The translations under genes and the position numbers were made by a program. The notes below the pieces were generated by a model. That model worked only from the letters and a program-made list of their open reading frames with translations, was not told where the DNA came from and did no database searches. Shown here piece after piece: positions 49,028-51,287 of a DNA stretch of 64,000 nt. Each line of letters opens with the position of its first letter. The stretch's first letter is position 1. This DNA is from Candidatus Dormiibacterota bacterium (GTDB taxonomy: Bacteria > Chloroflexota > Dormibacteria > Aeolococcales > Bog-877), in NCBI GenBank assembly GCA_963804565.1, contig CAWDQV010000001.1, positions 1,045,365 to 1,109,364 of the forward strand, read 5' to 3'.

Positions 49028-50373
49028 GGATAGATCCCCCGGGCCTGCGCGGCTCGAGCGACCCGACCGACTGCGATCAGGTAAGCGGCCTCGCGAAGTG
49101 AAACCTTGTGGCGCGCGTGGTACGCCCAGACCTGTTCGCTAGCTCGCAACATCGCGCGCTCCAATTGGGTATTGATCTCCTTCTCGTCCCAGAAGAACGA
49201 TTGGAGGTCTTGAACCCATTCGAAATACGACACCGTGACTCCGCCGGCGTTGGCGAGAATGTCCGGGACGACGAGGATCCCGTCCTCGGCAAGAACCGCT
49301 TCAGCTGCGGGAGTGATCGGGCCGTTGGCTCCCTCAGCAACGATGCGAGCCCGCACCGCGTTGGCGTTCGTGCTGTTGATGGTCGACTCCACCGAAGCCG
49401 GAACCAGGACGGTAACCGGCAGACTGAGAAGTTCCGCCCGCGTGATCGGCTCTCCCGGAACGTTGGCGTCCGCCATCCGACCGCCCGCCAGCTTGACCCT
49501 TTCGAGGCTTGCTACGTCCAAGCCACTGTCGCAGTGCCAGCCTTCGTGGCTGTCAGAGACGGCCACCACCCGGCACCCTTCATCGGCCAACAGTCGCGCG
49601 CAGGTGCGCCCTACATTGCCAAAGCCTTCGACCGCCACGGTGGCTCCATCGAGGGTGAGCCCGGTGTTGCGCAGCGCGTGCACCAAGATAGTCGCCAATC
49701 CTCTTCCGGTTGCCTCAACCCTTCCCACGGATCCGCCCGCTTCGATCGGTTTCCCCGTGACCGAAGCAGTCACCGAGTAGCCCTGGTGCATCGACAAGGT
49801 GTCCATGATCCAGGCCATGACCTGCGGACCGGTACCGATGTCCGGGGCCGGAATGTCACGCTCGGGTCCGAGCAGCATGCTGATTTCCGTAGTGAAGCGT
49901 CGGGTTAGTCGCTCCAATTCGCGGCGGCTCATCCGACGGGGATCCACGCAAACCGCTCCAGCAGCACCGCCGAAGGGCAGCGACATCAAGGCGGCCTTCC
50001 AGCTCATCGTCATCGCCAGTGCCTTGGTCTGGTCCAAGGTGGCGTCGGCCTCATACCGGATGCCACCTTTGGCCGGGCCGCGGGCGATGTTGTGATGGAC
50101 GCGGTTGCCCACAAAGACTTCGACCGTGCCGTCGTCCCGTACAACCGGGAAGTGCACCTGGAAGATCCGTTTGACTTCGCGCAGGACGCTGCGAACATCC
50201 TCGTCAAGGTGCAGCATCTCAGCCGCCTGATCCACGCGGTGCTGGGCGGTGCCGTAAAGGTCTTCGCTTCCCGGCGTCGGAGACGGCGCGATCACGGAGT
50301 CAGTATATGAGTGCGATGATCGGGGTTGGGAAGTCAAATGGCGGCCTGCGACGAGCCGGTAACACTTGCTCAC
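49024..50373 (-). CDS. gdhA: glutamate dehydrogenase (Glu/Leu/Phe/Val dehydrogenase family)
   Basis: 449 aa. Catalytic-lysine region GGIRYEADATLDQTKALAMTMSWKAALMSLPFGGAAGAV and a Rossmann domain (GFGNVGRTCARLLADEGCRVVAVSD). Its stop shares the CTAG tetranucleotide with the convergent response-regulator stop. Confidence 0.9.
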   Translation of the reverse strand: MSKCYRLVAGRHLTSQPRSSHSYTDSVIAPSPTPGSEDLYGTAQHRVDQAAEMLHLDEDVRSVLREVKRIFQVHFPVVRDDGTVEVFVGNRVHHNIARGPAKGGIRYEADATLDQTKALAMTMSWKAALMSLPFGGAAGAVCVDPRRMSRRELERLTRRFTTEISMLLGPERDIPAPDIGTGPQVMAWIMDTLSMHQGYSVTASVTGKPIEAGGSVGRVEATGRGLATILVHALRNTGLTLDGATVAVEGFGNVGRTCARLLADEGCRVVAVSDSHEGWHCDSGLDVASLERVKLAGGRMADANVPGEPITRAELLSLPVTVLVPASVESTINSTNANAVRARIVAEGANGPITPAAEAVLAEDGILVVPDILANAGGVTVSYFEWVQDLQSFFWDEKEINTQLERAMLRASEQVWAYHARHKVSLREAAYLIAVGRVARAAQARGIYP

Positions 50374-50572
50374 AAGGGCTCAAAGTGGTTGACATCCTCA
50401 CCCGCATGCACGATTGTGTGCCACAATTGGATTTACTCGATGGTGCGGGGAACCGGTTCACATCGCTTTCACTCACGTCACAATCACAACCGGCATCTAC
50501 AATCAGGCATCACCCTGAACGTCCAGGCGCTCAATTAGCTTGCGCCGCAGCAACCTAGGAGGAGACTCATCC

Positions 50573-51205
50573 ATGCCGCGAACCCCAAGGAGGACAGGCA
50601 CTCGGCGTACCACCGCGCGCCCTGCCGCAAGGACCACACGAAGGCCGGCGGCCAGGCGAACCGCCGCACGCACGACCGCACGTAGCACTACGGCGCGGCG
50701 GACCACAGCGCGGCGCACTACTCGCACCGCCCCCACCGCCGCTTCGCTGAGCAAGAACCTCTCAGCGCAGTTGAAGGCCCTGGAGAAGCGCCTGGCCGAC
50801 ATCGAGAAGAAGCTCGACGCGGCCGTGACCCGCAGCGCCGCCGCTCCTCGGACCACCCGTAAGCCCGCTCGGCGCACGACTGCTCGGCGTACCACAGCCC
50901 GGCGCACGGCCACTGCGCGGCCGGCGACTCGCGCGCGCCGGACCACCGCTCGCGCTACCACGGCGAAGCGTCGCACCGCCGCCCGGACGACACCCGCTCG
51001 TGCGACCACTCGGCGCCGGACGGCCCGGACTGCGACCGCAGCCGCGCCCCGTCGCGCCGCAGCGAAGAGGACCGGGCGCGCCCCGCGCAAGACGACGGCA
51101 CGCCGCGCTCCCCGCGCAGCGGCAGCTCCGAAGGCTGCACGTCGCCCTGCCAAGCGGCGGGGTCGGGTGACCCTATCCGGTGCCGGAGGATCCGGCGCCT
51201 CCTGA
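50573..51205 (+). CDS. highly basic Arg/Thr/Ala-rich tandem-repeat protein with a central amphipathic helix (possible nucleoid-associated/histone-tail-like protein)
   Basis: ATG at 50573 preceded by AGGAGGA. 210 aa, of which about 30% are Arg, arranged in (T)TARRT/ARRTTA repeats on both sides of SLSKNLSAQLKALEKRLADIEKKLDAAV. It is followed by an intrinsic terminator. The antisense frame is also open because of the repeat composition, but lacks a start context. Confidence 0.6.
   Translation: MPRTPRRTGTRRTTARPAARTTRRPAARRTAARTTARSTTARRTTARRTTRTAPTAASLSKNLSAQLKALEKRLADIEKKLDAAVTRSAAAPRTTRKPARRTTARRTTARRTATARPATRARRTTARATTAKRRTAARTTPARATTRRRTARTATAAAPRRAAAKRTGRAPRKTTARRAPRAAAAPKAARRPAKRRGRVTLSGAGGSGAS
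50590..51170 (+). repeat. imperfect tandem DNA repeats (about 12-15 nt units such as CGCACGACCGCA / CGGCGCACTACT) encoding the RRTTA repeats
   Basis: Visible periodicity of CGNACNACNGCNCGNCGN units across the ORF except for the central about 100 nt. Boundaries are approximate. Confidence 0.55.
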
Positions 51206-51235
51206 TACTTCGCTCTCTTCTCTCGGTCTCTCTAA

Positions 51236-51270
51236 AGGAGCGGGTCGCGGAGCCCGCTCCTTTTCCTTTT
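51236..51270 (+). terminator. intrinsic (rho-independent) terminator
   Basis: AGGAGCGGG-tcgcggag-CCCGCTCCT forms a perfect 9-bp GC-rich stem, followed by TTTTCCTTTT. It sits between the convergent repeat-protein gene and ltaE. Coordinates are approximate within a few nt. Confidence 0.7.
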
Positions 51271-51287
51271 CCCGGACCGGCATCAGA

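Follow-up and report, generated by a model that had tools for sequence, protein, structure and literature searches.

A conserved, extremely basic repeat protein with a central leucine zipper in uncultured Dormibacteria: a candidate nucleoid-associated polyanion binder

The 64-kb stretch of Dormibacteria DNA analysed here (the window, to which all coordinates refer) contains on its forward strand a coding sequence running from an ATG at 50573 to a stop codon ending at 51205, which encodes, as the initial annotation had proposed, an Arg/Thr/Ala-rich repeat protein of 210 amino acids. It is a genuine, monocistronic gene, with a GC content of 75.2% against 65.9% for the window, and its extremely basic product (net charge +61, computed pI 12.0) is built round one amphipathic coiled-coil helix. 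Alanine makes up 26.2% of the residues, arginine 25.7%, threonine 21.0% (44 residues) and lysine 5.2%, while a composition count found no cysteine, phenylalanine, histidine, tryptophan or tyrosine. The arginine content had been put at about 30%, a figure nearer to that of arginine and lysine combined (31%). Nor is the replacement of the usual lysine by arginine, to which attention had been drawn, a peculiarity of this protein, because its arginine to lysine ratio of 54:11 is that of the other proteins of the window (8.5% arginine and 1.7% lysine, or 5:1).

The gene is divergent from gdh, as originally described, in a neighbourhood of chromosomal housekeeping genes (purD, guaA, guaB and gdh) and not on a mobile element, and neither the gene context of the orthologous loci nor that of the window gives a functional clue from neighbouring genes. 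A functional tie to gdh can be ruled out, because the basic-protein gene is retained at one locus, L011, at which gdh is degraded. Three genes upstream, past a response regulator and gdh, lies a sortase gene. The basic protein does not qualify as a sortase substrate: it has no N-terminal signal peptide, no LPXTG motif and no hydrophobic segment besides the zipper, and its C-terminus reads RRGRVTLSGAGGSGAS. A Tat signal was likewise rejected, the protein being without sorting signals.

Eight distinct and intact orthologues of 202-262 amino acids were found in Dormibacteria-type MAGs and metagenomes, with the gene order kept. Comparisons of the sense ORF between them give dN/dS values of 0.15-0.26, insertions and deletions occur in multiples of three, and the composition is held while the sequence drifts (net charge +51 to +62, with 23-27% arginine, 18-24% threonine and 22-26% alanine). 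The ORF, its ATG and its Shine-Dalgarno sequence are intact at all nine loci. The gene is real and under purifying selection, its architecture and signals are conserved, and the family is restricted to one clade of uncultured soil bacteria, the Dormibacteria.

The contrary view, that the locus holds no functional protein gene, the ORF being an artefact of GC-rich composition, or that the antisense frame named earlier as an alternative is the real one, could appeal to a 216-aa ORF (50503-51153, reverse strand), which is uninterrupted in the window and has wobble positions in common with the sense frame. It could also appeal to the protein databases. Word-indexed searches (three, over 5.8 billion clusters) and an exhaustive HMMER search over 1.84 billion representatives returned only two relatives, the orthologues P0001 and P0002, each with a damaged frame; no intact orthologue was present in the large predicted-protein databases searched, and a cluster look-up with the exact protein gave no members. 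This is nevertheless the least probable of the readings considered, because the antisense frame is broken at four of the nine loci (L005, L007, L008 and L010) at which the sense frame is intact, the indels preserve the sense frame, and the terminator is oriented for the forward strand. Furthermore, in the segment encoding the central helix, where sense and antisense can be separated, the sense frame has a dN/dS of 0.03-0.2. The two halves of the gene in L001 lie in different frames, but a programmed frameshift was rejected there, as the disruption is a 1-nt deletion relative to the intact sister L010. Another locus, L004, is on an indel-rich, long-read-like contig.

The region shared with gdh (50374-50572, 53.8% GC) was correctly described as an AT-rich divergent promoter region, and the CACAAT/TCACAA repeats reported in it are present. 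A -35-like hexamer, TTGACA (50389-50394, forward strand), precedes GATTGT by 17 nt and CACAAT by 27 nt, with identical spacing in seven of the eight orthologous intergenic regions, that of L011 among them. This points to a putative TTGACA-based promoter for the basic-protein gene. The most conserved intergenic element is a 17-bp palindrome, GATTGTG-N3-CACAATC (50412-50428, reading GATTGTGTGCCACAATT in the window), which is found in all eight orthologues, including the distant L012, and is a putative operator over the -10 region. No second copy indicative of a regulon occurs within the 64-kb window. The strong ribosome-binding site noted previously is AGGAGGAG (50558-50565, forward strand), 7 nt before the ATG, of which GGAGGA is invariant in all orthologues. 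Downstream, between the convergent gene X and the threonine-aldolase-like gene, there is an intrinsic terminator (51234-51273, forward strand) with equivalents in all orthologues. Its presence agrees with the initial annotation, which had given it a 9-bp stem, but the hairpin (51234-51263, core GGAGCGGG/CCCGCTCC) is longer, with about 12 pairs (11-12), seven of them G-C, and is followed by the T-rich tract TCCTTTTCCC.

The leader is about 150 nt long and contains blocks that are nearly identical between the window and L006, while synonymous sites differ at pS = 0.6. Such a leader could autoregulate, in the manner of ribosomal-protein leaders, if the product bound RNA or were associated with the ribosome, whether as an RNA chaperone, as a factor in ribosome assembly or hibernation, or as a ribosomal protein particular to the lineage, its tails binding structured RNA. 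Arginine-rich motifs are typical RNA binders, and the strong Shine-Dalgarno sequence, clean terminator, monocistronic layout and conservation of leader blocks far beyond that of synonymous sites would all suit this role. The termini are also superficially similar to those of bL34 (MKRT... / ...RRRAKGRxRLTV), but resemblance to bL34 or bL36 is a visual impression without a profile match, and no ribosomal-protein family was detected at E <= 10 in any of the eight orthologues. The preference for arginine is uninformative about RNA binding, because the whole proteome is 5:1 in arginine over lysine. A structured 5' leader or riboswitch is not supported either: RNAalifold gave a covariation term of +1.9 with one compensatory pair in 23, and an Rfam scan of the locus produced chance-level matches only, with no family. 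As confinement to one small clade would also be unusual for a core component of the ribosome, a role in RNA or ribosome biology is regarded as unlikely, if still a serious competitor.

Within the protein, three features are invariant among orthologues: an MPRT..RT..RR N-terminus, the leucine zipper and a C-terminal RRGRVTL motif. The N-terminal basic tail (residues 1-55; 50573-50737, forward strand) is 33% basic without a hydrophobic face and contains ARRTT pentamers (lag-5 z of 2.7-3.6), while the C-terminal basic tail (residues 87-192; 50831-51148, forward strand) consists of degenerate TTARR/TARRT pentamers. Repeats of the TTARR type had been proposed on both sides of the helix, and this is borne out by lag-5 identity z scores of 3.6 and 3.5 relative to shuffles for the N and C tails respectively, which imply that the pentamer periodicity is real, though imperfect. 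In both tails the pattern is one of two basic and three threonine or alanine residues. Periodicity of basic residues at lag 4-5 is seen in most orthologues (z up to 3.4), weakening in L012, and each orthologue has 3-8 RR-x3-RR units. No part of the protein evolves faster or is more prone to indels than the C-terminal tail (dN/dS 0.18-0.31). Beyond it, the RRGRVTL segment (residues 195-201; 51155-51175, forward strand), invariant in all eight orthologues and subject to mostly synonymous changes, precedes a short, variable Gly/Ala/Ser tail.

At the DNA level, the 12-15-nt tandem repeats described earlier are weak and degenerate. The 15-nt unit does exist, as TRF identified 2.8 copies of it with 77% matches at 50867-50908, along with 2.5 copies of a 9-nt unit. 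The gene had also been predicted to be length-variable, which is true among relatives: between the nearly identical L005/L008 and L007, one exact 15-nt unit, AAGACGACGGCACGC, has been gained or lost. This does not extend to the window's own lineage, in which two other assemblies are identical, so that three compared copies show no variation in length.

Between the tails lies the central amphipathic helix, a leucine zipper (residues 56-86; 50738-50830, forward strand) with the sequence QLKxLEKRLxxxExKL invariant across the eight intact orthologues. The helix reported earlier corresponds to LSAQLKALEKRLADIEKKLDAAV at residues 63-85, which has a clean a/d heptad pattern over 3.5 heptads (a positions L67, L74 and L81; d positions L63, L70, I77 and A84) and a g-e' pair, R73-E78. 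AlphaFold2, run on the single sequence, predicts a helix at 56-90 with a pLDDT of 87-92, and a profile search of the PDB found only designed CoilSer coiled coils at E > 2, which is not significant. Long helices are also predicted in the tails, at 26-51 and 101-166 (overall pLDDT 70), and hence the label 'disordered' is not secure for them.

A basic region N-terminal to a leucine zipper, encoded downstream of an invariant palindrome that overlaps the putative -10 and persists at the locus with a decayed gdh, recalls a bZIP-like, sequence-specific autoregulator, which would dimerise and bind GATTGTG-N3-CACAATC in its own promoter. However, in all orthologues a conserved proline (P54 or its equivalent) and an uncharged linker of 7-10 residues, of the TAPTAAS type, separate the last arginine from the first heptad, and the predicted helix is broken at residues 52-55. 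There is therefore no continuous basic-zipper helix. The half-site centres of the palindrome are 10 bp apart, unlike those of bZIP sites, and a second basic tail of 110 residues would be superfluous to such a role; the palindrome is more simply explained by a helix-turn-helix repressor of the ordinary kind, with its gene elsewhere. Autoregulation of this kind is accordingly considered very improbable.

In scans against Pfam, NCBIfam and PHROGs, neither the protein nor its orthologues reached any threshold or gave a significant match, and a scan of viral contigs revealed no viral relatives. DUF5320 (PF17253) matched residues 2-82 with 16.1 bits (E 0.027), against a gathering score of 27 bits, with similarly sub-threshold matches in four of the eight orthologues; this similarity resides in the coiled coil, the MPR start and the low-complexity region. 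For HC2 (PF07382) the window protein scored 8.5 bits (E 2.7) against a gathering score of 40 bits, and four of the eight orthologues gave weak matches that were also below threshold, the best with E 0.018. No match to the HU/IHF fold (Bac_DNA_binding, PF00216) was found in Pfam or NCBIfam at E <= 1, and scans of the same two collections detected no phasin family.

The resemblances to known systems hence concern design. In actinobacterial HupB/MDP1, as in eukaryotic histone H1, the C-terminal Lys/Ala/Pro tail is basic, alanine-rich, low-complexity and repeat-based, and the earlier description of an H1/HupB-like tail holds as far as the type of tail is concerned. It is an analogy rather than membership, because no HU fold, HupB domain or H1 globular domain was detected and no Pfam or NCBIfam threshold was reached; moreover, those tails use lysine and proline where this protein uses arginine and threonine, and here two tails surround a zipper. 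Protamines and eukaryotic SR/RS domains are arginine-dominated polycations with hydroxyl residues, the charge of which is tunable by phosphorylation, but they are unrelated to the Dormibacteria protein, whose arginine bias matches its host proteome.

On sequence pattern, the closest counterpart of the tails is the Hc2 pentamer. Hc2, a DNA-binding, histone H1-like protein encoded by hctB, consists of consecutive pentamers of two basic residues and three from Ala, Thr, Val and Pro, and varies in length by repeat units (PMC2848022). Chlamydial Hc2 and the Hc2-like BpH1 of Bordetella share with the present protein a size of about 165-237 residues, strong basicity, construction from pentamers and length change by repeat units; the Dormibacteria tails follow the pentamer rule imperfectly, and the 15-nt difference noted above is a length polymorphism of the same type. 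By contrast, Hc2 is lysine-rich and lacks the central coiled coil and the MPRT and RRGRVTL termini, while the Dormibacteria repeats are far more degenerate, the phyla are unrelated and there is no significant sequence match. The RGR tripeptide of RRGRVTL is shared with Lsr2 and H-NS, which use it to enter the minor groove of DNA (PMC4466236). In those proteins it belongs to a loop within a folded domain, here to a disordered C-terminus, and as three residues are too few, no homology is inferred.

The other comparable design is that of Pseudomonas PhaF and AlgP, intrinsically disordered proteins in which a short leucine zipper is joined to a basic, low-complexity tail, AKP-rich and histone-like. 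In PhaF a 22-residue zipper is combined with such a tail, and the protein forms a tetramer with non-specific DNA binding (PMC3574117, PMC7590123). The zipper of the Dormibacteria protein may be of this type: its heptad pattern is invariant, with leucine at a and Leu/Ile at d, and its AlphaFold2 helix has a pLDDT of about 90. This likeness, and a charge density that would bind polyphosphate, could indicate that the protein serves as a scaffold on some other polyanion or on a storage body, be it polyphosphate granules, PHA granules (with PhaF/PhaM-like tethering to the nucleoid) or an anionic membrane surface. However, PhaF has an N-terminal amphipathic PHA-binding helix, whereas both flanks are basic in the present protein, which has neither a phasin domain nor a long amphipathic lipid- or PHA-binding helix, its hydrophobic surface being the short zipper only. 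It also lacks sequence similarity to PhaF, and no pha or ppk genes are nearby; a scaffolding role of this sort is thus rather improbable.

By analogy with histone H1, Hc2 and protamines, the interpretation preferred here, at a probability of about one half, is that of an oligomeric, non-specific binder of polyanions that is largely disordered and probably nucleoid-associated. Nucleic-acid binding, oligomeric state, nucleoid localisation and regulation are in this case all properties that we infer. The two long basic tails, with roughly one positive charge per three residues, would bind the phosphate backbone of nucleic acids independently of sequence, while the 3.5-heptad Leu/Leu zipper would unite two to four chains. 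As a consequence, each oligomer would display four to eight tails, with which it could bridge and compact DNA. The invariant RRGRV near the C-terminus may serve as a docking peptide or, in the manner of an AT-hook, as an anchor in the minor groove. Expression would proceed from the gene's own promoter, under the invariant palindromic operator, and end at its own terminator. Against association with the nucleoid, the protein lacks a folded DNA-binding domain and does not significantly resemble any protein that has been characterised. Disordered regions that are rich in arginine are no less ready to bind RNA, polyphosphate and acidic lipids than DNA, and the choice of DNA as the target is therefore a preference rather than a result.

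Long dormancy is the source of the phylum's name. A more speculative extension, best treated as a long shot, would make the protein the Dormibacteria's own chromatin-condensing analogue of protamine and H1, in which Arg/Thr pentamers round a trimer- or tetramer-forming zipper drive a coacervate-like compaction of the nucleoid in dormancy. It would be switched on through the palindromic operator and off by Ser/Thr-kinase phosphorylation of the 44 threonines, a bacterial counterpart of the phospho-regulation of protamines and SR domains.

Should the preferred interpretation be right, an uncultured phylum of soil bacteria that is known solely through metagenomes has here a candidate for its architectural chromatin protein, or for a general organiser of polyanions. 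The protein would represent an independently evolved case of the design seen in Hc2, PhaF and H1, in which a basic pentamer tail is combined with an oligomerisation helix, persisting in a lysine-poor, arginine-rich proteome. Given that the family is very small and its function putative, its present value is that of a well-defined hypothesis rather than a discovery. Annotation can also easily overlook the gene or place it on the opposite strand, which, together with the absence of its intact orthologues from predicted-protein sets, makes it a useful test case for gene calling in GC-rich genomes.

The 210-aa basic protein is encoded on the forward strand at 50573-51205, ATG and stop codon included. 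This ATG is preceded by AGGAGGAG, and the gene lies downstream of a 199 bp region of 53.8% GC, compared with 65.9% in the window and 75.2% in the ORF itself. Across this region stands the divergent gdh, encoding glutamate dehydrogenase (Pfam ELFV_dehydrog, E = 3e-70); on the other side, a terminator made up of a 12-pair hairpin with a T-tract after it separates the basic-protein gene from a convergent one resembling threonine aldolase (Beta_elim_lyase, E = 9e-93). The initial annotation, whose observation is confirmed, described the gene accurately apart from small corrections: the arginine content, given as about 30%, is 26%, and the terminator stem, given as 9 bp, measures 11-12 bp. The tandem repeats it described in the coding DNA are present, but weak (a 15-nt unit in 2.8 copies, with 77% matches). 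The gene order common to all loci is sortase (reverse), OmpR-type regulator (forward), gdh (reverse), basic-protein gene (forward), aldolase (reverse) and GAF-GGDEF (reverse). This neighbourhood is one of chromosomal housekeeping functions (purD, guaA, guaB, gdh, aldolase, diguanylate cyclase) and provides no functional clue.

An identical protein is called in two other assemblies (L002 and L003). Sequence searches returned only two relatives, P0001 at locus L001 and P0002 at L004, both frame-damaged; intact orthologues came from scanning GTDB genomes and JGI metagenomes for patterns, which yielded L005 and L006 and then L007-L012. L006 is labelled 'Candidatus Dormibacteria bacterium', Dormibacteria being a class within the phylum Candidatus Dormiibacterota, and L005 carries the MAG label 'Candidatus Acidiferrales'. 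All eight distinct orthologue sequences (202-262 aa) begin with MPRT behind an upstream GGAGGA, and every orthologue has a GGAGCGGG/CCCGCTCC hairpin and T-tract after the stop codon. Alignment gaps comprise whole codons. By the Nei-Gojobori method, comparing each orthologue with the window, dN/dS is 0.15-0.26 overall, while for the segment encoding the central helix it is 0.03-0.2 in the closer orthologues and 0.37 in L011, saturated synonymous sites precluding a value for L012. The initial annotation had allowed that the antisense frame might be the expressed one. This frame is indeed longer than the true gene both in the window (50503-51153, reverse strand, 216 aa) and in L006 (2910-3644, 244 aa), and because the two frames have their wobble positions in common, codon statistics cannot tell them apart. 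However, the antisense frame is broken in L005, L007, L008 and L010, whereas the sense frame is open at all loci. A non-gene, or a genuine gene on the opposite strand, is extremely improbable. The family is genuine and lineage-restricted. Intact orthologues are absent from protein sets of 5.8 billion clusters and 1.84 billion representatives which, together with the long antisense ORF, suggests that gene callers often miss the gene or call the wrong strand.

In the eight-sequence alignment three elements are strictly conserved, with basic tails that evolve fast between them: an N-terminus of M-P-R-T-x-x-R-T-x-x-R-R, a helix with the invariant pattern Q-L-K-x-L-E-K-R-L-x-x-x-E-x-K-L, and a C-terminal heptapeptide, R-R-G-R-V-T-L, invariant in 8/8, after which comes a short, variable stretch of Gly, Ala and Ser. 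The helix has the register of a zipper of about 3.5 heptads, with Leu67/74/81 at position a, Leu63, Leu70, Ile77 and Ala84 at position d, and g-e' pairs such as Arg73-Glu78. Single-sequence AlphaFold2 predicts it at residues 56-90 (pLDDT about 87-92); the helices also predicted at 26-51 and 101-166 are uncertain, as they fall in Ala/Arg-rich low-complexity sequence modelled with no alignment. In the PDB, only designed three-stranded CoilSer peptides resembled it, none significantly. Although they change in sequence, the tails retain composition and charge (R 23-27%, T 18-24%, A 22-26%, net +51 to +62). They also have a pentamer rhythm (lag-5 identity autocorrelation, z about 3.5); each protein contains 3-8 RR-x3-RR units, and basic residues recur at lag 4-5 with z up to 3.4. 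This rhythm weakens in L012, the most distant member. The length variability anticipated by the initial annotation is borne out among relatives, L007 lacking one exact 15-nt unit (TTARK) that L005 and L008, otherwise nearly identical to it, possess.

The window's product consists of 26.2% Ala, 25.7% Arg, 21.0% Thr, 6.7% Pro and 5.2% Lys, with only four acidic residues and no Cys, Phe, His, Trp or Tyr (net charge +61, 22.6 kDa). The initial annotation saw Arg/Thr in place of the usual Lys/Ala, but the Arg:Lys ratio of 54:11 is the same 5:1 found in the window background (Arg 8.5%, Lys 1.7%; 33 long ORFs, 14,616 residues), and the bias therefore reflects the usage of a Lys-poor proteome. Across these 33 ORFs the proteome is extremely poor in Lys. 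The unusual part of the composition is Thr, which exceeds its background level more than any other residue does (21% vs 5%), an enrichment maintained in all orthologues.

No curated family matched the product or its orthologues. DUF5320 scored 16.1 bits where the cut-off is 27, and HC2 8.5 bits where it is 40 (best orthologue E = 0.018), and family scans found no HU, phasin, ribosomal-protein or phage match. The closest known analogues are functional rather than homologous. Chlamydial Hc2, which binds DNA, has pentamers of two basic and three Ala/Thr/Val/Pro residues and varies in length by repeat units (PMC2848022); Pseudomonas PhaF forms tetramers through a short leucine zipper and binds DNA non-specifically through a basic AKP-rich tail (PMC3574117, PMC7590123). 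The RGR of RRGRVTL recalls the Q/RGR motif that enters the minor groove in Lsr2 and H-NS (PMC4466236), which, being three residues of a disordered tail, is a lead rather than a test. The functional kind, that of bacterial H1-like basic repeat proteins, is already known; what is new is the architecture, in which the termini are conserved and a zipper is flanked on either side by a basic tail of pentamers. It is about an even chance (roughly 0.5) that the protein is an oligomeric, non-specific polyanion binder: the basic tails would bind the polyanion, the zipper would provide multivalency, and the oligomer would bridge nucleic acid and compact it, the nucleoid being the likeliest target. The interpretation given by the initial annotation is partly supported. 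Association with RNA or the ribosome could equally employ basic tails but is unlikely; the Arg bias is no evidence for RNA-over-DNA binding, nor for protamine-like specialisation. More doubtful still are a scaffolding role for polyP, storage granules or the membrane surface, likewise a use for a polyanion binder, and a chromatin condenser of Dormibacteria that would be linked to dormancy and could be switched by phosphorylation.

Blocks within the intergenic DNA are far better conserved than synonymous sites (pS 0.4-0.7). A perfect TTGACA (50389-50394) stands a constant 17 nt before GATTGT, and a 17 bp palindrome, GATTGTG-N3-CACAATC (50412-50428), takes in GATTGT and also a TGnCACAAT element like an extended -10; the palindrome is invariant in 8/8 orthologous intergenic regions. 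Both are retained in L011 although gdh has decayed there, and are therefore assigned to the basic-protein gene. TTGACA is a putative promoter element, and the palindrome, of which the 64-kb window holds no second copy, is probably an operator for some regulator, overlapping the -10. That this regulator is the protein itself, acting in the manner of a bZIP, would fit a basic protein with a zipper, but is very improbable because a conserved Pro-containing linker interrupts basic-zipper continuity. The putative 5' leader of about 150 nt contains, at 50440-50572, strongly conserved blocks: CCGGTT...CACGTCACAAnCACAACCGGCG, ATCAGGGATCAnCCTGA and, immediately upstream of the Shine-Dalgarno sequence, a GGCGC...GCGCC hairpin. 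RNAalifold gave no covariation support for structure in this leader, and Rfam no match; the blocks could be transcription factor sites, for instance for the adjacent OmpR-type regulator.

The gdh ORF as mechanically assigned, from GTG 50373 on the reverse strand (449 aa), probably starts too early, as its orthologues begin at about MIA(V)AP..GSEDLY, equivalent to the reverse-strand GTG at 50288-50286. A conserved TATACT (50303-50308, reverse strand) lies a short distance upstream of this codon, so gdh may be leaderless and the intergenic region proper about 286 bp long. On the L011 metagenome contig (1400-2560), gdh consists of fragments with 32-37% identity and lacks an intact ORF, while the gene order is otherwise intact, as are the basic-protein gene and its promoter elements. 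In L001, one of the two frame-damaged relatives, the N-terminal half is encoded in one frame and the conserved C-terminal half in another; programmed frameshifting was rejected, as the sister L010 is intact and a single base, deleted in L001 after the codons for VGRA (955-975), separates the two. This break is therefore an assembly error or a recent pseudogene. L004 (4291-4960), the other, is an indel-rich contig, on which neighbouring genes are also split.
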